A stretch of 64,000 nt of DNA from Candidatus Parcubacteria bacterium (GCA_003599755.1 QZJO01000009.1:22140-86139); one strand, 5' to 3'; counted from the stretch's first letter, positions 4,801-41,570 are shown. A program made the numbers and translations. Notes: a model not told the origin generated them from the sequence alone.

Positions 4801-6123
4801 ATGGTCACCAAACCCACCGCCATCCCCGCATATCCCGGCGTTTATATCTTTCGCCGCGATGGAACGCCGATCTATGTCGGCAAAGCCGCGAACCTCAAAA
4901 CGCGGCTCGGTTCGTATTTCCAGAAACGGCCGAACCTCGGCACGAAAACCGAGCGGATGCTCGCCGAAGCCACAAGCGTGGATTTTGAAAGGGTCGTATC
5001 CGAGATCGATGCGCTGATCAAAGAAGCGGAGCTGATCAAAAAATTCCATCCCCGGTTCAACGTCATCATGCGCGATGACAAGAACTACTCGTTCGTCGGC
5101 ATTACCAAAGAGCCGTTTCCCCGCATCTTCGTCACGCATCAGCCGACCGACGCCGAGGCCAAGCGTCGCGCCGGCGCCAAAGGCGGCGCGAGTTACTACG
5201 GCCCGTTTACGAGCGCATCCGAACTCCACATGGCGCTCAAGCTTCTGCGCCGCGTATTCCCCTATTGCACCTGCAAACAGCCGCATAAACGTCCCTGCCT
5301 GAATAGCCAGATCGGCCGCTGTCCCGGCGTCTGCTGTATCACAGATCCGCGCGCCAGATTCAAGAAACTGGCGCACGCGCGGGCGCAGTACCGCCGCACG
5401 ATTCGGAAAATTATCGCCGTGCTCAAGGGTGATCGCCAGCGGCTGATGCAATCGCTCAAGCGCGAGATGGCACGCGCGGCCAGGACCGAACGCTATGAAG
5501 AGGCCGCGCGCCTGCGCGACGAGTTATCGGGACTCGAGAGCTTATTCGAGCATCGCACCGTGATCCGCCGACCGGACGCAGGCCCCCTATGGCAAGAGAC
5601 CGAAGCCCATTTGCGCGTAATGCTCGGCACGGACATGCCAATCAGCCGCATCGAGGGCTACGACATCTCCAATATCAGCGGTACCGAGGCGACCGGTTCC
5701 ATGGTGGTGTTCACCGATGGCCGACCGGACAAAAGCCAGTACCGAAAATTTCGCATCAAGACCGTGGTCGGCCCCAACGACGTCGCGTCGCACGGCGAGG
5801 TATTGCGCCGCCGCTTTACCCATCCCGAATGGCATTACCCCCAACTCGTCGTGATGGACGGCGGCAAGCCGCAGCTCAATGCCGCGCTCGCGGCCCTGAA
5901 GGATTCGGCCAAACGCGATAAAATTATCGGCCGCGTGATCGTCACCGCGCTTGCCAAGCGCGAGGAGATTCTCTTCACCGCCGACGGCCGATCCATCCGC
6001 CTCGCCAACGAGCACCCGGCGCTCTTCAATCTCTTTCGCTTCATCCGGAACGAATCCCACCGCTTCGCCCAGGCCTATCATCATAAACTCCGCCAAAAAT
6101 TCTATGCCGCGTCATCGCGATAA
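4801..6123 (+). CDS. uvrC: Excinuclease ABC subunit C, short form
   Basis: GIY-YIG motif at the N-terminus (PGVYIFRRDGTPIYVGKAANLKTRLGSYF) plus the UvrC endonuclease region. Start chosen at the Met directly preceding the GIY-YIG domain. Confidence 0.85.
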   Translation: MVTKPTAIPAYPGVYIFRRDGTPIYVGKAANLKTRLGSYFQKRPNLGTKTERMLAEATSVDFERVVSEIDALIKEAELIKKFHPRFNVIMRDDKNYSFVGITKEPFPRIFVTHQPTDAEAKRRAGAKGGASYYGPFTSASELHMALKLLRRVFPYCTCKQPHKRPCLNSQIGRCPGVCCITDPRARFKKLAHARAQYRRTIRKIIAVLKGDRQRLMQSLKREMARAARTERYEEAARLRDELSGLESLFEHRTVIRRPDAGPLWQETEAHLRVMLGTDMPISRIEGYDISNISGTEATGSMVVFTDGRPDKSQYRKFRIKTVVGPNDVASHGEVLRRRFTHPEWHYPQLVVMDGGKPQLNAALAALKDSAKRDKIIGRVIVTALAKREEILFTADGRSIRLANEHPALFNLFRFIRNESHRFAQAYHHKLRQKFYAASSR

Positions 6124-24401: not shown

Positions 24402-25058
24402 CTATCGATTGAGGGCCTTCAAGGAATTCCGGACGCGCCGGACGATGCAGGCGGCTACGGCCGCGCCATGAACTTCCTCGTCCCCATTGGTGAAATACTC
24501 GTGGAAGCGAACTCCTCGTGCTTCCACATTCCAGCTTCGGCACGCCGTGAGCCGGCGTTCGATGTCCTCCGCGTTGTCTCCCCGTTCATGCATGCGCCGC
24601 CGGATGATCTCATCGGGTAGCGCAGCAAGGCCGATACTCAGCAGCGAATCCGCCATGCCGATGCCGGCAAGGTACTTCTGAAGATCTGCTGCGGCCGCGG
24701 GCGGGGCCTCCAAAATCCGCACGGCCCTGCCTTGGAAGCAGGCATGAACGTTCGCCTTGCGCCCGCCGTATCGGTGACCCTGCACGGGATTTATCCAGAC
24801 AAGCTCGCCGGCGTCCCGCAACCGATCGAAGGCCTTGTTCTGGATGTACTCGTACTGACCGGGAAGATCGGCCGGTTTGCGGTGCCGCGTCGTCGTAATC
24901 GGAAATGGCTTGAATTCCACCTCCTTGCTCGCGACGAGCTGTCGCAGAATCGCGCTCTTCCCCGCCCCGCTCGGTCCGCTGATCGTAAGGATGCGTGTAA
25001 CCACGAACTGCCTCCTCTCTTGCACGGTATGCTGCCTTGCCACCAGCAATGCATACAT
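24402..25058 (-). CDS. Guanylate kinase-like P-loop kinase, paralog A
   Basis: Walker A ISGPSGAGKS, a GMP-site-like TTTRHRKP...YEY motif and a Gmk-like C-terminus (IVNDD-like FTNGDEE). The start is uncertain. Confidence 0.6.
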   Translation of the reverse strand: MYALLVARQHTVQERRQFVVTRILTISGPSGAGKSAILRQLVASKEVEFKPFPITTTRHRKPADLPGQYEYIQNKAFDRLRDAGELVWINPVQGHRYGGRKANVHACFQGRAVRILEAPPAAAADLQKYLAGIGMADSLLSIGLAALPDEIIRRRMHERGDNAEDIERRLTACRSWNVEARGVRFHEYFTNGDEEVHGAAVAACIVRRVRNSLKALNR

Positions 25059-25141
25059 GATGCGGGAAAGCAATGCGTTCCGCTGCCGAAACGGCAGCAA
25101 AGAGTTCGGAGCGGCGCGCGCGGGCGCCGCTCCGATATCGT

Positions 25142-25753
25142 TTACGCTCGCACGCCCCACAGATACCGATAGGACTCGAGGACGCGCCGGATGATTGCGG
25201 CGCTTACCGCAGCGCCGGGAACTTCCTCATCATCGTTGACGAGGCATTCATCGAAGCATTCCAGGCGCCGGGCATCCGCATCCCAGGCGCGGCACGCGTC
25301 GAACCGATCCCGGATTTCCGCCGCGGAATCGCCGCGCTTCTCCATGCGCCGCAGCAGCACGTCGTCCGGCGCAGTCAGGTACACGCTCCAGACCGAATCA
25401 TGGATGCCGCTCTCACGCACGTACCCCTTCAGGCGCGGCACGATGTCCGGCGTGAGCGCCATAACGGATACCGCGCTTCCCCGAAGACAGGCGTTGATGT
25501 TTCGCCTGCGCCCGCCGTACCGATAGCCGCCGAACGACTTGACCCAGACGAATTCGCCCTGCTCATCGAACTCATCGAACGCCGGATTGGTGCAGTACTC
25601 GTAGTCGTCCCCTGCATCGGTCGGCCTCTGCAGCCGAGTGGTCGTGCTGAGAAACGGCCGGAACTTCGGTTCCGGATGCTCGAGCAGCCGCCGCATGATC
25701 GTGGTTTTACCCACGCCGCTTCGACCGCTCAGTACAACGATCCGTATGACCAT
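25142..25753 (-). CDS. Guanylate kinase-like P-loop kinase, paralog B
   Basis: Walker A LSGRSGVGKT and STTTRLQRP...YEY. GAGGAGGGGG RBS precedes ATG 25753. Collinear with paralog A. Confidence 0.6.
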   Translation of the reverse strand: MVIRIVVLSGRSGVGKTTIMRRLLEHPEPKFRPFLSTTTRLQRPTDAGDDYEYCTNPAFDEFDEQGEFVWVKSFGGYRYGGRRRNINACLRGSAVSVMALTPDIVPRLKGYVRESGIHDSVWSVYLTAPDDVLLRRMEKRGDSAAEIRDRFDACRAWDADARRLECFDECLVNDDEEVPGAAVSAAIIRRVLESYRYLWGVRA

Positions 25754-25953
25754 CGCCCCCTCCTCGCGAATGAGTGAACTGCCCATGCCTGGCACCAGGC
25801 ATACCCGAAACGAACGACTCCGTCAACCCATGGCGTTCCCGCGCGAAAACATGCCGACATCCCGTTTCGGAATGCCGGCATGCGCTCTACTTCGACATAT
25901 AAAAATGACGTTGCCGCTGCTTCCGTCTTTCCGGGCCAACGTCAACCGCGCGA

Positions 25954-27077: not shown

Positions 27078-27160
27078 TTATTCTGGCGTTCTTAAGAATT
27101 TGAGAATGAATTGCCGTGTGCGGGAGGGCGCTATTTCCGCTGTCCCCTCTGTTGGTTTTC
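27078..27160. repeat. Island repeat R1, carrying a 28-bp palindrome around TTCTTAAGAA
   Basis: ATTCT-GGCG-TTCTTAAGAA-TTTG-AGAAT, followed by a CTGTCCCCT block. It is related to R2-R5. Confidence 0.6.
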
Positions 27161-27499
27161 CTTAAGACGGGCGCGGATGATCTTTTTGATGAGTGCGGTG
27201 GGAACCTTCGCGCCGCGGGGAATCTGCAGCGTGCTCGCGACCACCTTTTGCGCGGCGAGCTCTTTTTTGAATGTCTTTTTGTCTTTGGCGCTAATCCAGA
27301 AAAAACTGCAGTGATTTTTGAATGCGGCAAAATACGCCAGCCGGCCGTTCTGGCTGTAGTACGGCATATGGTAGCTGATCGACTCTTTGGCTTTGGGCGC
27401 GGCGGCCCTGATCGTCCGGCGCAATTCCCGCAACGTGCCGCGGGCCCACGGCGGGGCTGAAGTAATGTAGGCGGTTACGGTTTTGGGGTTGGGGTTCAT
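27131..27499 (-). CDS. DUF1801-domain protein
   Basis: 122 aa matching the YdhG/DUF1801 fold family. Lower GC than the flanking core. Confidence 0.55.
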   Translation of the reverse strand: MNPNPKTVTAYITSAPPWARGTLRELRRTIRAAAPKAKESISYHMPYYSQNGRLAYFAAFKNHCSFFWISAKDKKTFKKELAAQKVVASTLQIPRGAKVPTALIKKIIRARLKENQQRGQRK

Positions 27500-27528
27500 G
27501 GCGTTCGGCTCATTGTCATGTACCGTTT

Positions 27529-27912
27529 TTACGTTTTGCGTGAGTGCCGCTTAAGCCAGGCAGCGATGTCCGCTATGGATTCCTTCTTCATAGCTACCCG
27601 AACCATGAAGCGCACGATTTCGTTGTTCGGCGCGCTGAATTCGTAACGATTCAAGAATAAAAAGCGCGCCGCCGCTGCAATCGCCGTGCGCTTATTGCCA
27701 TCCACGAAGACGTGGTAATTCGCAATCGCTTCAAGGTAGACGGCGGCTCTGGCGAATATATCGCGATATAACTTCTTGCCGCCGAATGCCGCCTTGGGCT
27801 TATCGGCTAGAGCGGCGAACAGTCCAACGTCGCGCACGCCATGCAAGCCGCCGGTCTCGTCGATGATTTCCGAGTGAATGATGAGGATATCCTCGGCGCT
27901 TAGGTGGCGCAT
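27529..27912 (-). CDS. doc: Doc (death-on-curing, Fic-fold) toxin
   Basis: Fic/Doc core around HVFVDGNKRTAIAAAARFL, immediately downstream of the antitoxin. Confidence 0.8.
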   Translation of the reverse strand: MRHLSAEDILIIHSEIIDETGGLHGVRDVGLFAALADKPKAAFGGKKLYRDIFARAAVYLEAIANYHVFVDGNKRTAIAAAARFLFLNRYEFSAPNNEIVRFMVRVAMKKESIADIAAWLKRHSRKT

Positions 27913-27916
27913 AGGA

Positions 27917-28147
27917 TCAGCGCTTCGCGAGCGCTTCGAGCGCCGGGCGATAGCGCTCGATAAACTTGCGGGTCCAGTCGAGCGTTTCGCGATCCACGGT
28001 TTTGTGCGGCTTGATCACCACCGACGCCTGTTTTTTGTTTATCTCAACGGAAACCCGATCCCCCACTTTGAGCCCGAGTTCTTCGAGCGTGCGTTTCGGG
28101 ATGGTCACGGCGGCCGAGCTGCCGACTTTGAGCACTTTTTGGGTCAT
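27917..28147 (-). CDS. AbrB/MazE/SpoVT-fold antitoxin (Phd-like partner of Doc)
   Basis: 76 aa with a swapped-hairpin beta-barrel signature (KVGSSAAVTIPKRTLEELGLKVGDRVSV). It lies 5 nt upstream of doc. Confidence 0.75.
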   Translation of the reverse strand: MTQKVLKVGSSAAVTIPKRTLEELGLKVGDRVSVEINKKQASVVIKPHKTVDRETLDWTRKFIERYRPALEALAKR

Positions 28148-28267
28148 ATCATGAATTATAACAATATTATAATATCGTATTCAACATAGCGCCCATCAAG
28201 TGATGACGTCAAATAGCGATATTCCATTTCTCCTGTCTTTGTAAGAAGTTCGTAAAAAGCTATCCAA

Positions 28268-28320
28268 GCTTATTCTCAAGTTCTTAAGAACATGAGAAGA
28301 AGAGTGTTGCGGGAGCTACA
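28268..28320. repeat. Island repeat R2, with a perfect 12-bp palindrome GTTCTTAAGAAC
   Basis: TTATTCTCAAGTTCTTAAGAACATGAGAAGAAG forms a 26-bp near-palindrome centred on TTAA, in the Phd/Doc upstream region. Confidence 0.6.
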
Positions 28321-28636
28321 CGCGGATTTCGAGGGAGAATGGAATCGTCTGGCCGGCTACGATCCCCTCTCTTTTGCGCATTTCGGCCTTGAGCGGCAGA
28401 AGGTAAGCGCCGGCTTTGGTATCGGGAAAGATTGAAGTCCGCCATTTGCTTTTGCCGATTGTGACGTTGACCGGCAGCGAGCCCCACCCTCGCTTTATCA
28501 CGCCGAACACTTTCTTGATCTCATCGGATTGCTTTTTCGGCAAGGTCACGAAATGCCACCCCGCCATGCCGGGATAAAGCCATACTTTCGCCCGCATCTC
28601 GTAGCGGGTTTTCGGTGTGCGTTTGGAGGACTGCAT
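28316..28636 (-). CDS. DUF1905-domain protein
   Basis: 106 aa matching DUF1905 small proteins. Confidence 0.55.
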   Translation of the reverse strand: MQSSKRTPKTRYEMRAKVWLYPGMAGWHFVTLPKKQSDEIKKVFGVIKRGWGSLPVNVTIGKSKWRTSIFPDTKAGAYLLPLKAEMRKREGIVAGQTIPFSLEIRV

Positions 28637-28685
28637 CCGCAGTTTGCTGTTCTACTTTTTGTTTACGGTGCTATCGTCCGCGCAC

Positions 28686-28712
28686 CATTCCATCATTCGC
28701 GCGAATTAGAAA
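28686..28712. promoter_or_regulatory. Palindromic element ATTCCATCATTCGCGCGAATTAGA, copy 1
   Basis: Perfect 12-bp palindrome ATTCGCGCGAAT about 50 nt upstream of the DUF1905 gene start. A near-identical copy sits at 29418-29444. Confidence 0.5.
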
Positions 28713-29332
28713 TACCAAGGAAGAGGAGCAATCCCGAGCAATAGTATGGCGCATCGTATCATAACGCCTTTTTTTATTGCTTCGATATACTTGGGGTGAT
28801 CAATTTTATGCGGCGCATCTTCTACGATAATGAGCTTGGCTCGTTTCGCCAGCGCAGCAGTTTCTTCGCATCTTATTTTCAATTGCGGAAATCTGCGTCC
28901 CTCGACCGCCCCATAAAATATCGTCGTCGGCATCGTGAGGGTTTGGGCGATGGTTCGAGCGCTTCGAGTCCGAGTATCTTCGAATCTCCGCTTACCGATC
29001 AGTTTTCTAACCCAGGATTTCATAGCGGTTCGATCTTCGCGGAAATCTGGACTCAACGAGCACAAGTAGAGTTGTTTGGGCTTAAATTCGCCTGCGGTCA
29101 TAAAGGCGATAACCGCCCCATAAGAGAATCCGAGAAAATAGTCATTGCCAGTTCGATGTTCTCGGTAAAACTTTTTAAAATCAATGACATAGTCCGACAC
29201 CACGCGGTACTTCCATTTGATCGGGACCCCGAAGACTCGAAAACCTTTGTGTTTTAAGAATTTAATTAACCAACCATAATTCCGGCTCGATGTTTTTTCT
29301 TGCCAACCAGGAATGACAAAAATTGTTTTCAT
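28706..29332 (-). CDS. Alpha/beta hydrolase-fold protein
   Basis: 208 aa with GFSYG nucleophile-elbow motif. AT-rich. Confidence 0.6.
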   Translation of the reverse strand: MKTIFVIPGWQEKTSSRNYGWLIKFLKHKGFRVFGVPIKWKYRVVSDYVIDFKKFYREHRTGNDYFLGFSYGAVIAFMTAGEFKPKQLYLCSLSPDFREDRTAMKSWVRKLIGKRRFEDTRTRSARTIAQTLTMPTTIFYGAVEGRRFPQLKIRCEETAALAKRAKLIIVEDAPHKIDHPKYIEAIKKGVMIRCAILLLGIAPLPWYF

Positions 29333-29417
29333 TGTTACCCGCTATTTCTTATAAATCCGAGATAAAACTGCTATGGAATTATTGTGGGTCGTGGATTGTG
29401 TTAATTTCTATTTCTAC

Positions 29418-29444
29418 TATTCCATTATTCGCGCGAATTAGACA
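29418..29444. promoter_or_regulatory. Palindromic element ATTCCATTATTCGCGCGAATTAGA, copy 2
   Basis: Same 12-bp palindrome about 95 nt upstream of the hydrolase gene start. Confidence 0.5.
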
Positions 29445-29523
29445 AGGAGACGAGAGACGAGGAGGGAGAGAAAAATGGATGGAAGAAGATTCGAGGCGGC
29501 GCCAGCAGCGCCGCCTCCTCGGT

Positions 29524-30132
29524 TTACTGTTGCTCCTGTCGCTCGTGGATACCGTAGCGCCGGAGAAGATGCTCGCGTACCTTCCCGCCCTGTTCGTACG
29601 GCACAATGACCGCCGTGATTGGGATGCCGTAGAACTGGTTCAGGAATGTGAAGACGTCGTCCATCTGCTCCTTCCCGACCTTACCGGATCCGCTGCAGTC
29701 GGTGCAACCGGCCGCGATGAGGACCTTGTGCGGCGTCCCCACCTCGTAGACCACGTCGTGACGGCTGCGATCGGGTTCCCAGCATTCCGCATGAATGACG
29801 CGAAGATACCATCCGCGCAGGAAGCCCGGGAACGCCTTGCCGAGCTCACTGACCGTATGAGCGATGAGTGGATCCTGATAGGGCGACCCGGGATACCCGA
29901 CGAGCGCGATGCGGCGAGGCCGACCGTTCTCCTGGCTCGGAACCGAAAGACCGTACGGATGCTCGTCCAGATCGCAGATCTGCTCATGCGGCTTCGCGTC
30001 ATCATATACGATGCGCTGCGCCGACCGTTGCGCGACTTGAAGCAGGTACGACAGGCCAGCCATGGCTGGAGGTAGCGAGTCGCCATTGTGCACGGCGATC
30101 CGCTGGGAGGAGTTGGGCTTAGCGTGTCTCAT
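29524..30132 (-). CDS. Hypothetical protein, high-GC insert within the island
   Basis: GGAGG plus 4 nt plus ATG. Contains W/Y/H/C-rich segments (CTDCSGSGKVGKE) and no recognisable family. A 200-aa antisense ORF with its own RBS exists at 29479-30075, so the strand is not certain. Confidence 0.4.
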   Translation of the reverse strand: MRHAKPNSSQRIAVHNGDSLPPAMAGLSYLLQVAQRSAQRIVYDDAKPHEQICDLDEHPYGLSVPSQENGRPRRIALVGYPGSPYQDPLIAHTVSELGKAFPGFLRGWYLRVIHAECWEPDRSRHDVVYEVGTPHKVLIAAGCTDCSGSGKVGKEQMDDVFTFLNQFYGIPITAVIVPYEQGGKVREHLLRRYGIHERQEQQ

Positions 30133-30214
30133 ACGCCTCCTTGAAAGAGCATTTTTTTGTCTCGAGAGCTATTTTCTATTATATTATATTTATATAAATA
30201 GTCAAGTCTATCCT

Positions 30215-30310
30215 CGCATTCTCAAGAATGTTGGAATGTTCCTGTCCCCTGCTTCGGATCTGTGGATTCTCGGGGCGGCGGCGATGGAGGCGTCGAGGTT
30301 TTTGATGGTG
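30215..30310. repeat. Island repeat R3
   Basis: CATTCTCAAGAATGTTGGAATG ... CTGTCCCCTG ... GGGGCGGCGGCGATGGAGGCGTCGAGG is about 85 % identical to R5. Confidence 0.6.
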
Positions 30311-30446
30311 GATTTCTATGAATTGGTCGAGCCTGCGTTATTGCCTAGGACTAGGAATGTGCAGAAAATACTGTGTTTCAGAGCTTGGGTTGAAAATAAC
30401 CATAAATCCTAGTACCATTGAAACAGAAGAGTCGTTATGCCGTCAG

Positions 30447-30677
30447 ATGTATAGTGGCATGAAATTTGAGTTTACGCAGCATGCCCGGCAGCGCTGTAAG
30501 GAACGACGCATTAGATTTCAAGACGTCAAAGCGGTTGTCTCGAATCCCTCTACGACAAAGATAACTGCAGCCGGAACTATTGAAGCCCGGGGTAGAATTC
30601 GCAGCAAGACACTGGTAGTAATTTTCGCGGTGAAGCGAGATCTGCGTATAATAATTACGGCATATTATGAAGTTTAG
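30447..30677 (+). CDS. DUF4258-domain protein, toxin-like
   Basis: MKFEFTQHARQRCKERRI matches DUF4258. Its stop overlaps the start of the next gene. Confidence 0.6.
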   Translation: MYSGMKFEFTQHARQRCKERRIRFQDVKAVVSNPSTTKITAAGTIEARGRIRSKTLVVIFAVKRDLRIIITAYYEV

Positions 30678-30885
30678 CTACGACAAATACGCTGACGCAG
30701 TGTATATACGAGCGAAGTCGGCAAAGATTAAAAGAACTGAAAAATTTCAGGACGATATTCTTATTGACTTTGATGCGGAAAACAAAGTCCGTGGTATAGA
30801 GATATTGAATGTATCCGAATGGCTATCTAAAGATAAAACTCCAAGCGTGGAAATCGGAAACCGCAAAATACCCATTCCGGCGTAG
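30667..30885 (+). CDS. DUF2283-domain protein, antitoxin-like partner of DUF4258
   Basis: 72 aa with YDKYADAVYIR...DFDAENKVRGIEI (DUF2283), overlapping the upstream gene by 11 nt. Confidence 0.6.
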   Translation: MKFSYDKYADAVYIRAKSAKIKRTEKFQDDILIDFDAENKVRGIEILNVSEWLSKDKTPSVEIGNRKIPIPA

Positions 30886-30897
30886 TGAACGAGTCAA

Positions 30898-30925
30898 AGG
30901 CCGCTCCTTTAGAGAGCGGCCTTTG
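30898..30925 (+). terminator. Hairpin terminator after the DUF2283 gene
   Basis: AAAGGCCGCTC-CTTTAGAG-AGCGGCCTTT. Confidence 0.55.
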
Positions 30926-30940
30926 TATTTCAATCGTCAA

Positions 30941-31055
30941 TCCGGTTTATTCTGATGTTCCTAAGAAGATCGGAATAAATGGAGATGGGCGGAAGATGGA
31001 TGATCGGATCTTTTGTGGGTTTGCGGGGCGGCGGCGATGGAGTTTATGCTGCTTC
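30941..31055. repeat. Island repeat R4
   Basis: TCCGGTTTATTCTGATGTTCCTAAGAAGATCGGAATAAATGGAG...GGGGCGGCGGCGATGGAG combines the R1-type 5' part with the R3/R5-type 3' part. Confidence 0.6.
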
Positions 31056-31066
31056 AGCTATGACGG

Positions 31067-31462
31067 TTAGCTTTGGAACTCCGGCTTCGAAAGATATTCC
31101 TCGGGAATGATTTTCGCTTTGATGGTCTTTGCTCCCTGGAGATAGGCCTTTGCTAACCGATGCACGCCGTCGATGACAACAAGTCGACCGTTGAATCGCC
31201 GAAGGAGGATCGGATATTGCAAGTCGGTGTCATCGACGCGTTTTTGATGCGCTGATGTCCCCGCCTCTCCGCGGATGACTTGCCATGGCGTGAGATTCCA
31301 ATCATCGGTGCCGTCCTGTTCCCAGACCGGCATATCGAAATGCCATACAAGTTCGTCGATCGCCACATCGATAATCGGCAGCGGCAACTCGCGGAGTTTT
31401 ACGGTGTCTACAAATAAATTGAGGCCGGCATCGGTCAGTATTTTGGGCGGTGTTTGTTCCAT
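31067..31462 (-). CDS. ParB/sulfiredoxin-fold nuclease-domain protein
   Basis: VVIDGVHRLAKAY carries a DGxHR motif typical of ParB N-terminal (ParBc) nuclease domains. Confidence 0.5.
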   Translation of the reverse strand: MEQTPPKILTDAGLNLFVDTVKLRELPLPIIDVAIDELVWHFDMPVWEQDGTDDWNLTPWQVIRGEAGTSAHQKRVDDTDLQYPILLRRFNGRLVVIDGVHRLAKAYLQGAKTIKAKIIPEEYLSKPEFQS

Positions 31463-31506
31463 AAAAACATGAGAAGCTGCGGGGCTGATTGAAAGCGAGG
31501 AAATGT

Positions 31507-31625
31507 GACATTCTCACATTCTCAAGAATGTTGGAATGTACTCGTTTCCTGTGGCCTGTCCCCTGTTCTGGGCTGGTGGGTTTGCGGGGCGGCGGCGATG
31601 GAGGCGTCGAGGGGTTTAAGGGGCG
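31507..31625. repeat. Island repeat R5
   Basis: CACATTCTCAAGAATGTTGGAATG...CTGTCCCCTGTTCTGG...GGGGCGGCGGCGATGGAGGCGTCGAGGGG. Confidence 0.6.
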
Positions 31626-32018
31626 GATTTTATGGTTGCTGCCAAAGTGGGACGAGTTCCGAACGATAAAGTGGGATGAAATGTTCGAATTTCCTAGCGT
31701 TTCTCTCGACCAGATGCAGAAATTGCTTGCGCTCCAGTGATGCCGGATCAACATTCGAACCGGCTATTAGTTGAAACTGGCAGAGCAACGCTGCTGGTAT
31801 TTTGTAGTAATGAATGATAATGCCAGCGTGTTAGTATTTGCATTCACAATCTTCGCCATTATAGTCACTCTGTTTTTGCTGCCATCGGTTTTTGGACTCT
31901 ACGCTACGCGCCAACCGTGGCGATTTGAAGAATGGTGCCTCGGCGTTTACGGTAAAGAACGATGTGAACGAGAGCGCCATCTTCTCCGGTGGGAGTTTTC
32001 TGAATTTCAGTAAAAGAT

Positions 32019-39847: not shown

Positions 39848-39884
39848 ATTATAGCATCCACCTTTTCGCATTGCAAGATCCACC
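39848..39884 (-). promoter_or_regulatory. Predicted sigma70-type promoter of lexA
   Basis: On the lexA strand: -35 TTGCAA, 17-nt spacer, -10 TATAAT ending 9 nt before the ATG, so the transcript is probably leaderless. GGTGGAT direct repeats flank the -35 box. Confidence 0.45.
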
Positions 39885-39911
39885 ATATCCTACCCAGCCG
39901 CCCAAGGCTAC

Positions 39912-40361
39912 TTACCTCCTCCGCTCCTCCCACTCCGGCACGTCTTCGCCAACAATATAGAAAAAATGGAATGCGCCGGTGGGGCCGATCCAGCGAAAGG
40001 TTTTGACCAGGATCGCGCGGCGCTTGGCGTAGGGCAGCTTCCTGATGGAACGGATGAAAGCGGCAAAGGAGCCGTGCTCTTTTTGCAGGCCCTGGATGAT
40101 GCGCGCGTTTTCTATTGTGCCGCGGATCTTCGCGCCGTTCCTAATAATGCCCGGATCGGCGAGCAAGCGCAGAACGTCACGCGCGCCCATCTTCGCCACT
40201 TTCTGAACATTGAAATTATGGAATGCCTTTCGGAAATGCGGCCACTTGTTGCGCACGACTTCCCAGGAAAACCCCGCCTGGAATACGGATTGCGCCAGCG
40301 CTTCAAGATAGCCGTTGTCGTCCTTCGGGCGCTTGGGCGTGGGAATGTAGTAGTCGTACAT
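39912..40361 (-). CDS. tag: DNA-3-methyladenine glycosylase I
   Basis: Full-length similarity to Tag, including a conserved aromatic/Glu core (FHFFYIVGED...). Confidence 0.75.
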   Translation of the reverse strand: MYDYYIPTPKRPKDDNGYLEALAQSVFQAGFSWEVVRNKWPHFRKAFHNFNVQKVAKMGARDVLRLLADPGIIRNGAKIRGTIENARIIQGLQKEHGSFAAFIRSIRKLPYAKRRAILVKTFRWIGPTGAFHFFYIVGEDVPEWEERRR

Positions 40362-40404: not shown

Positions 40405-40426
40405 CCAAACCAAAACCGCCCGCAAG
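40405..40426. repeat. 22-nt exact repeat CCAAACCAAAACCGCCCGCAAG, copy 1
   Basis: An identical 22-mer is found at 41233-41254. Both lie upstream of minus-strand transcription units. Confidence 0.6.
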
Positions 40427-41232: not shown

Positions 41233-41254
41233 CCAAACCAAAACCGCCCGCAAG
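41233..41254. repeat. 22-nt exact repeat CCAAACCAAAACCGCCCGCAAG, copy 2
   Basis: Second copy, about 190 nt upstream of the operon at 40540-41047. Confidence 0.6.
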
Positions 41255-41570
41255 GGGTCGCCCCCTCACCTCCTCCGGTCCTCCCATTCAAATGAGCCGT
41301 GCTCCTTTGAAGCCTCGAAACTCCTCTGCCCCTGGCCGTGTCCTATCAAATAACACGCCGGATCACGAACGGTTCGGCTGATGGGGCGCCCAAGGCCCCC
41401 GACAATGTCCGCCAGGCGGACGCCAGCGGTCGCTGGTACCCTCAAGGGGTCAGGCGGCTTTTTTTATTGCGCGAGGCGGTTGCCATTTCTCCAAAATAGT
41501 GGTTTATTTTCCATAGTCCCGCTCTTCTCAGAACCGTGCGCGGCAGTCCCACCCCCACAAGGAGGAACGC

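Follow-up and report, generated by a model that had tools for sequence, protein, structure and literature searches.

The window analysed here, a 64,000-nucleotide stretch of DNA from Candidatus Parcubacteria bacterium (GCA_003599755.1, QZJO01000009.1:22140-86139; coordinates count from its first letter), carries five related palindromic repeats, R1–R5, at the left end of a low-GC island (~27.0–40.4 kb; 43–56% GC vs. about 60% outside), with R1 at its left edge. From left to right, a GNAT gene is followed by R1, genes for a DUF1801 protein, a Doc toxin and a MazE/AbrB antitoxin, R2, a DUF1905 gene, a site of a second palindrome family (sister site a, described below), an alpha/beta-hydrolase gene, sister site b, a 202-aa open reading frame (ORF), R3, DUF4258 and DUF2283 genes, R4, a 131-aa ParB/Srx-like ORF, R5 and small ORFs, and further on by genes for a D12 methyltransferase, a ParB-like protein, an MmeI-type restriction-modification enzyme, LexA and Tag. 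The 131-aa protein of the R4–R5 module is 100% identical to RJQ36696.1 (C4552_02265), encoded in a metagenome-assembled genome of a Candidatus Parcubacteria bacterium. Across successive modules the GC content is 55–58, 55, 45, 62, 40–46, 52 and 46%, flat inside the modules and stepping at the repeats, and every site lies at a module junction, as a preliminary description made from the sequence alone had indicated. All five repeats are intergenic, except that the tail of R1 runs into the final codons of the DUF1801 gene. The ORFs of 22–44 kb, most of the larger of which were scanned against Pfam, include no evident integrase or transposase.

The pattern ATTCT-N4-TTCTTAAGAA-N4-AGAAT, searched with at most 3 mismatches in the window and in 100 shuffles of it, matched exactly five positions (27080, 28272, 30210, 30949 and 31510), all in one register, where none is expected from the shuffles. 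Moreover, a weight matrix derived from 161 sites of other genomes scored R1–R5 at 31–49 bits, while the rest of the 64 kb reached at most 8 bits and the maximum in 20 shuffles was 2.4; a sixth, weak match at 32017 was not backed by the matrix. Each repeat is a copy of ATTCT-N4-TTCTYRAGAA-N4-AGAAT and forms an imperfect palindrome with arms of 15–17 nt:

R1 palindrome, 27078–27109, unstranded: TTATTCTGGCGTTCTTAAGAATTTGAGAATGA; 45 bits; RNA fold −8.2 kcal/mol, z −1.7; G at position 9
R2 palindrome, 28270–28301, unstranded: TTATTCTCAAGTTCTTAAGAACATGAGAAGAA; 42.6 bits; RNA fold −12 kcal/mol, z −3.0; G at position 9
R3 palindrome, 30208–30239, unstranded: CTATCCTCGCATTCTCAAGAATGTTGGAATGT; 36 bits; RNA fold −8.2 kcal/mol; A at position 9
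R4 palindrome, 30947–30978, unstranded: TTATTCTGATGTTCCTAAGAAGATCGGAATAA; 34.6 bits; RNA fold −16.7 kcal/mol, z −5.8; G at position 9
R5 palindrome, 31508–31539, unstranded: ACATTCTCACATTCTCAAGAATGTTGGAATGT; 49 bits; RNA fold −13.9 kcal/mol; A at position 9

These results bear out the five related repeats with an ATTCT...AGAAT core that had been described earlier, together with the perfect palindrome GTTCTTAAGAAC in R2 and the 28-bp near-palindrome in R1; the similarity of R3 and R5, put at ~85%, was measured as 86% over 111 aligned nt with one 14-nt indel. The GAAT-N4-GAAT direct repeat also ascribed to the copies is present in the sequence but is simply the right arm of the palindrome, not a separate repeat. 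The outer left arm of R3 has decayed, and a strong minus-strand promoter-like site lies 3 nt from this copy. R4 has the highest predicted hairpin stability of the five. The 28-mer of R5 recurs identically in four other genomes (L079, L089, L093 and L116), and in L093 it stands 17 nt upstream of the start of a gene for an ArsR-type protein.

Distribution and anatomy of the palindrome family

A scan of one genome per species with the pattern ATTCT-N4-TTCYYAAGAA-N4-RGAA returned at least 120 loci, and the figures given below for other genomes refer to the loci listed; by our own rough estimate, a few tens of chance matches are expected in the species-genome collection. Assigned to groups by their record titles, the 120 loci listed divide as follows:

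Saccharibacteria, other candidate phyla radiation (CPR) phyla or "Patescibacteria group": 76
Planctomycetota / Phycisphaerae: 12
Omnitrophota: 4
labelled "bacterium" only: 14
other labels: 14

The same pattern had no match in 2.9 million viral contigs, and the palindrome had none in Rfam, at either gathering or permissive thresholds.

The consensus of the 161 sites reads W-Y-ATTCT-N-A-N-R-TTCT-Y.R-AGAA-Y-N-T-N-AGAAT-R-W, that is, four RTTCT pentamers with an 8-nt period in a 13-2-13 layout, 28–32 bp in length, in which positions 1–5, 10–13, 16–19 and 24–28 are (nearly) invariant. The two central bases, TA, CA or TG, are not self-complementary (43% vs. 56% expected). The arms mirror each other well beyond the conserved bases, as is seen when the complementarity of mirror pairs is set against the expectation from column composition:

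mirror pair 6/23: complementary in 67% observed vs. 36% expected
mirror pair 8/21: 76% vs. 37%
mirror pair 9/20: 86% vs. 54%
mirror pair 0/29: 78% vs. 47%
mirror pair −1/30: 80% vs. 34%
mirror pair −2/31: 53% vs. 31%

Within single loci, compensated double changes outnumbered uncompensated ones (39 vs. 29), and one-sided changes were the commonest (130). Among mismatched mirror pairs read on the sense strand, G.U and A.C occurred at 30 vs. 38 in tandem spacers and 17 vs. 19 inside genes. Since G.U is not preferred over A.C, the symmetry belongs to the DNA duplex, or to either single strand, and not to a transcript.

This result bears directly on the possibility that the repeats act as RNA hairpins, either as intrinsic, perhaps bidirectional, terminators or as elements that stabilise or process mRNA. 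Considering the stem potential of 12–16 pairs, the enrichment of sites in convergent and tandem spacers near stop codons, the A-runs and T-runs that flank some copies and the folding of R2, R4 and R5, which is better than that of shuffles, such a function is conceivable, yet we regard it as highly improbable. Apart from the lack of G.U bias, a T-tract (at least 5 T in 8 nt) follows only 19 of 110 sites at gene 3′ ends (17% vs. a background of 9%) and the stem is AT-rich, while the host's own terminators are GC-rich. One of these, a canonical hairpin at 30896–30924 (AAAGGCCGCTC...GAGCGGCCTTT, then a T-run), ends the DUF4258–DUF2283 pair 20 nt before R4, which is therefore not needed as the pair's terminator. 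Further, it is the sequence and not merely the structure that is conserved across phyla, no Rfam family matches, and many copies lie inside coding sequence.

An ArsR/SmtB-type gene is bracketed by the palindrome

Clustering of the ORFs over the 120 loci singled out one enriched family, an ArsR-type protein encoded at 20 loci vs. 6 for the next family. The protein is 89–100 aa long, starts with ...LERxxKGxANHRR, matches Pfam HTH_5 and HTH_20 and matches in sequence the solved structures of HlyU and CzrA (E 2.5e-6) and that of AspA. In its AlphaFold model (mean pLDDT 84), the elements follow the order a1-a2-a3-a4-b1-b2-a5, a topology for which Foldseek returned CzrA, SmtB, AspA, ArsR and SqrR at TM 0.7–0.8. 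In all 20 loci the gene is bracketed directly by two sites about 300 bp apart, the first of them 17–50 nt upstream of the ATG. As a control for bias, three genes were picked by protein similarity alone; each of them had a site 17–50 nt before its ATG and another over the stop codon. Between loci, DNA homology spans exactly site to site, as a 335-bp module of site, gene and site, and the surroundings differ by genome. The downstream palindrome codes for the nine C-terminal residues as well as the stop codon (ILKFLRTLE*); a second subfamily has only the stop codon within it.

The family comprises at least 1,655 clusters. Its 120 best matches share 73–100% identity with the query across 89 residues and belong to WWE3, Woyke-, Curtiss-, Sung- and Berkelbacteria and Parcubacteria; 112 of these 120 end in the palindrome-encoded C-terminus [IVL]LxFL[RK]x[LF]E, and cysteine occurs in just 4. 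Some high-GC Planctomycetota possess perfect AT-rich palindromes together with GC-adapted ArsR-type genes (L020, L022 and L110, Phycisphaeraceae, 67% GC; L023 and L062), and the pair is therefore not confined to Patescibacteria.

At L247 and L093, a TATAAT- or TACAAT-like box directly follows the upstream site, so placed that the centre of the site, TTCTYA, probably occupies the position of the −35 element. The type of site also tends to follow the type of protein. Position 9 is invariably A in sites beside subfamily B genes (recognition helix SEHTRRLVQAGLL), where positions 8–9 are mostly CA and the flanks often C/G, while G at position 9, present in about half of subfamily A sites, occurs exclusively beside subfamily A genes.

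A sister palindrome and its paralogous gene

The window contains a second, related palindrome family that the preliminary description did not mention, with the consensus ATTCT-N3-RTTCG-CG-CGAAY-N3-AGAAT, again in a 13-2-13 layout. Its core, ATTCGCGCGAAT, is found at 28695 and 29427, flanking the alpha/beta-hydrolase gene, and both copies are decayed:

Sister copy a, 28684–28716, unstranded: ATTCC-ATC-ATTCG-CG-CGAAT-TAG-AAAT; outer right arm decayed; over the alpha/beta-hydrolase stop codon
Sister copy b, 29416–29447, unstranded: upstream of the alpha/beta-hydrolase gene

Elsewhere, this palindrome brackets a paralogous ArsR-type gene, at L252 (gene 1900–2178; sites 1395–1500, 1870–1900 and 2185–2225) and at L038 (gene 4861–5109; sites 4845–4880 and 5185–5225). 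The paralogue thus has a palindrome of its own on either side. This arrangement, the co-occurrence of gene and palindrome and the trend between subfamily and site type lend indirect support to the putative binding of the ArsR-type protein to its site.

Sites in spacers and inside genes of other genomes

The sites of other genomes, about 160 in number, are placed as follows:

tandem spacers: 71
convergent spacers: 33
divergent spacers: 10
inside long ORFs: 35

One site only is present at most of the related 8-kb loci; in the arrays that occur beside the ArsR-type gene in other genomes, one to three genes lie in each interval. The intragenic copies are real and lie in genes for MurD, TsaD, MnmA, Xaa-Pro peptidase, IscS and others. 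The earlier statement that the repeats are not coding holds in this window; in other genomes, the palindrome is often in frame inside real genes. The frame is nearly always HSN[VI]L[KE]N[VI]R[MI], and only stop-free frames are used; the ILxFLRTxE frame meets a stop codon right after the site and occurs at gene ends.

The loop after LEGH in TsaD could be scored in about 105 close homologues, roughly 25 of which read L[YH]SN[VI]L[KEQ]N[IV][RG][IM]. The others have unrelated loops that start with LYSNWL or LYSFLL, and native Tyr-Ser-Asn codons have therefore been re-used as the left arm of the site. The presence of the site is polymorphic among close relatives, the length of the loop is usually unchanged by it, and in P0306 it occupies a second position in the same loop. 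Because the loop is usually replaced at constant length with re-use of the YSN codons, these copies look like in-situ evolution and not like insertion. In one MnmA loop (L092, 6640–6750), two palindromes stand side by side: one is a standard site (HSNILKNVRM), the other a variant centred on CTGCAG (HANILQNVSM). Together they make the loop ~25 residues longer than that of E. coli MnmA.

Placement of this kind raises the possibility of a selfish element resembling repetitive extragenic palindromes (REP), in which the palindrome, with the winged-helix gene as cargo, would propagate itself without a regulatory role, would spread inside a genome and from one genome to another through recombination, gene conversion or template switching and would be kept where it is tolerated (spacers, gene 3′ ends and permissive loops), the copies in the window being decaying relics. 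The bracketed gene parallels RAYT genes flanked by REP sequences, and the homology that stops exactly at the two sites in genome-specific contexts agrees with such an origin, as do the identity of the protein (73–89%) over distant candidate phyla and its presence in GC-rich Planctomycetota, the stop-free in-frame copies in MurD, TsaD, MnmA, the peptidase and IscS, the polymorphism among close TsaD homologues with its second, independent loop position, the palindromy that reaches non-conserved positions and flanks, and the depletion of divergent spacers. Against it, the 120 loci listed show no enrichment of a transposase, an HUH enzyme or a recombinase, direct repeats flank the sites at chance frequency, leaving no sign of target-site duplication, and the TsaD loop is usually rebuilt without a change in length from codons already there. 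Moreover, viral contigs hold no copies, and no catalytic activity is known for ArsR-fold proteins. Cumulatively, we consider self-propagation rather unlikely.

Several more specific origins were rejected. Transposon-like insertion was ruled out by the absence of target-site duplications, and the miniature inverted-repeat transposable element (MITE)-like remnants proposed earlier fail on the same point and on the lack of terminal inverted repeats around a body. Phage origin was ruled out, viral contigs giving no match. Neither are the repeats integron attC sites or clusters of attC sites lacking integrases (CALIN), as they have no R′′/R′ boxes, measure 28–32 bp vs. 57–141 bp and are accompanied by no evident integrase among the ORFs of 22–44 kb; the GTT-containing core reads GTTCTTA or GTTCCTA, unlike attC R′ (GTTRRRY). 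A DNA uptake sequence would occur genome-wide at roughly one copy per kb on both strands, vs. 5 copies in 64 kb here, all within 4.5 kb.

Modules, junctions and 3′ tails

The alternation of repeats and modules suggested cassette junctions to the author of the preliminary description. Such junctions would be integrase-free, the palindromes serving as portable joints of homology or recombination at which modules are gained, lost or swapped, through homology-facilitated recombination after natural transformation or through a host Xer-type recombinase, in analogy to integrons and pdif-module arrays. As a description, the term cassette boundary is apt: eight modules are separated by seven sites within 4.5 kb, the GC content steps at the sites and not inside the modules, R1 stands at the edge of the low-GC island, and similar arrays exist near the gene for the ArsR-type protein in other genomes. 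The 28-bp, 11-6-11-like layout, read from the sequence, is also compatible with sites of tyrosine recombinases. As a mechanism, however, we find it distinctly improbable. No recombinase was seen in the ORFs of 22–44 kb that were scanned or was enriched in the loci listed, no module besides the gene for the ArsR-type protein was found in two contexts with breakpoints at sites, and the integron attC signature is absent. Further, the gene of the R4–R5 module has homologues (63–64% identical) in three other Patescibacteria, none with a site within 4 kb, and the idea that sites travel with the module genes was rejected on this account.

In the window, R1 and R3–R5 continue into 3′ tails:

R1 tail, 27110–27185, unstranded: CTGTCCCCT and a weak GTTGGTTT block in common with R3–R5; overlaps the 3′ end of the DUF1801 gene
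R3 GC-rich tail, 30240–30320, plus strand: CCTGTCCCCTG ... GGGGCGGCGGCGATGGAGGCGTCGAGG ... GGATTTCTATG
R4 tail, 30979–31042, plus strand: ends in GTGGGTTTGCGGGGCGGCGGCGATGGAG
R5 GC-rich tail, 31540–31634, plus strand

The 3′ blocks that had been assigned to most copies are real, each being present in only three of the five: GGGGCGGCGGCGATGGAG is exact in R3, R4 and R5 only, and CTGTCCCCT occurs in R1, R3 and R5. The GC-rich tails, about 60–100 nt long in R3, R4 and R5 and weakly represented at R1, are specific to this locus. The unit shared by R3 and R5 has the palindrome at one end only, and one of the two would have been derived from the other by local duplication of a ~125-nt unit. No Rfam family matched the tails, and in a metagenome scan with the loose pattern AAGAA-N38-68-GGGGCGGCGGCGATGG for palindrome plus tail, the matches listed were chance matches, none of them with the palindrome. 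Remnants of ArsR-type pseudogenes were considered for the tails of R1 and R3–R5 and dismissed, given that nhmmer aligned just the palindrome and a few bases and that local alignment to four GC-rich genes of the family gave mostly z <2.2, with one value of 4.

The minus strand of R1 reads ...QFILKFLRTPE*, like the C-terminus of the ArsR-type protein, and frames beside R1 (27081–27128, minus) and R2 (28248–28298, plus) read PSRTRQFILKFLRTPE* and VRKKLSKLILKFLRT*E, for which tblastn gave only short, weak matches to that C-terminus (E 0.2–0.8). These stretches may be relics of lost copies of the gene.

Other features of the island and its surroundings

Between 32912 and 38027, the island encodes a D12-class adenine methyltransferase, a 458-aa ParB-like protein and a complete MmeI-family type IIG restriction-modification enzyme. 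At its right edge, two pairs of direct repeats (39911–39935 / 41265–41289, 25 nt, 88% identical; 40405–40426 / 41233–41254, 22 nt, 100% identical) surround the tag gene and a gene for an 8xMP membrane protein, and may be a duplication scar or a junction scar. Outside the island, two adjacent, overlapping, paralogous guanylate-kinase-like genes on the minus strand (24402–25160 and 25142–25795) have an 87-nt stretch in common at 70% identity.

Discussion

Based on the strict bracketing of its gene, the paralogue with a palindrome of its own, the fold and the 13-2-13 anatomy, we take the palindrome to be the cognate site of the ArsR/SmtB-type protein, and we hold with moderate confidence that R1–R5 are such binding sites, here as orphan, decayed copies at the junctions of mosaic modules. 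Of the three options offered by the preliminary description, operators for a common dimeric regulator is thus the best supported, although the regulators it named are not supported. Nothing ties the MazE/Phd-like antitoxin to the sites, and the lexA promoter holds another motif, the direct repeat GGTGGAT-N15-GGTGGAT, unique in the window. This repeat, at 39856–39884 (minus strand), overlaps the −35 element and the spacer of a TTGCAA/TATAAT promoter and is a candidate for the direct-repeat LexA box of this Parcubacterium.

ArsR/SmtB proteins are autoregulatory and bind 12-2-12 inverted repeats as one or two dimers. The binder here would be a small (about 89 aa), metal-site-free winged-helix dimer, or a pair of dimers, of this family; its upstream site, over the −35 element and spacer of its own promoter, would mediate autorepression, and a second site would be occupied over its own stop codon. 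In other genomes, further sites form short arrays in the spacers nearby and occasionally lie in frame within genes. If the protein is encoded in another part of the genome, the window's sites could act in trans as protein-occupied boundaries, whether as repressor sites, roadblocks or architectural elements.

A number of observations weigh against this interpretation. The 64-kb window contains no gene of the ArsR-type family or of its paralogue; R3 and R5 have no −10 element at the place seen in the protein's own promoters; site placement shows no promoter bias, with divergent spacers depleted; and no conserved regulon emerges from the 120 loci listed. Binding alone does not explain the intragenic copies, nor does the binding-site reading account for the GC-rich tails of R3–R5. 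The protein is 73–89% identical across deeply divergent candidate phyla, a degree of conservation equally compatible with strong constraint and with the horizontal spread of a selfish module. Lastly, mirror positions covary where they are not conserved, and so do the 2–3 flanking bases, even inside one genome, for which binding by a dimer is insufficient. The covariation, the outward extension of the symmetry, the depletion of divergent spacers, the intragenic copies and the conservation of the protein would fit a REP-like, self-propagating element; they would also fit intrastrand template switching that "corrects" palindromes whose symmetry is already largely in place.

Keeping these points in mind, we also considered a hitherto unrecognised two-part system in which a minimal ArsR-fold protein and a 30-bp palindrome spread without transposase or integrase through Patescibacteria, some Planctomycetota and Omnitrophota, the sites being written into spacers and into loops of essential genes such as tsaD, murD and mnmA and serving as joints for the exchange or insulation of modules. 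We think it quite unlikely that this combination holds as a whole; if it did, organisms reliant on DNA uptake would possess an analogue of a cassette platform that works without an integrase.

Returning to the binding of the palindrome by its ArsR/SmtB-type partner, several known systems offer points of comparison. With ArsR/SmtB repressors such as SmtB, CzrA and HlyU, the protein shares fold and size, and its site shares two 12–13-bp arms around a 2-bp centre and a position over the protein's own promoter. Unlike these repressors, it lacks metal- or thiol-sensing residues, has a second site over its own stop codon and many extra sites away from promoters and inside genes, and is conserved together with its site across whole candidate phyla. 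AspA of the Sulfolobus plasmid pNOB8 is likewise an ArsR-fold protein that binds a palindrome, and it spreads along DNA; for the protein described here, binding is putative. AspA, ParB-parS, Noc-NBS and MatP-matS also have in common with the present family palindromes that are dispersed over genes and spacers, one of them within the gene of the protein itself or beside it. The ArsR-type gene, however, has no ParA or ParB partner as a neighbour, and the arms of those sites do not covary at non-contacted positions, whereas non-conserved positions do so here.

REP/RAYT systems resemble the family in palindromes of 30–40 bp that are specific to each genome, favour the 3′ sides of genes and flank an associated gene. 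They differ in that the partner found here, which is also the only enriched flanked gene, is a winged-helix DNA binder and not a Y1/HUH enzyme, in that there is no GTAG head and in that copies also lie in frame inside genes. The last trait is shared with Rickettsia palindromic elements (RPE), which occur in frame in permissive loops of essential genes; those are insertions of 100–150 bp, whereas the present sites are 30 nt long and often replace a loop at unchanged length. Integron attC sites and pdif (Xer) modules share same-orientation repeats between small accessory modules, including toxin-antitoxin pairs, and differ by their R′′/R′ boxes (RYYYAAC...GTTRRRY), their length (57–141 bp vs. 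28–32 bp) and their associated integrase or Xer gene, neither of which was seen with the sites in the ORFs and loci scanned here.

In the literature searched, neither this palindrome nor a Patescibacteria pairing of an ArsR protein with a palindrome was found. As a family, the sites and the protein appear to be undescribed; in kind they are a variant of ArsR/SmtB operators, of AspA/parS-like families and of REP/RAYT systems. The in-frame intragenic copies and the site over the protein's own stop codon are unusual.

A large part of bacterial diversity belongs to the Patescibacteria, whose regulators are few and whose genetics is almost unstudied. With the protein and its 28-bp site both in hand, the proposed pairing is directly testable. 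The palindrome can serve annotators as a marker for arrays of accessory genes, and it explains the odd conserved peptides HSNVLKNIRM and ILKFLRTLE in Patescibacteria proteins. Should the sites be recombination joints or a self-spreading element, they would represent a new route of genome plasticity in reduced genomes; if, on the other hand, they are bound as we propose, the protein and its palindrome would be among the few lineage-wide regulatory or architectural systems that can be defined for Patescibacteria.

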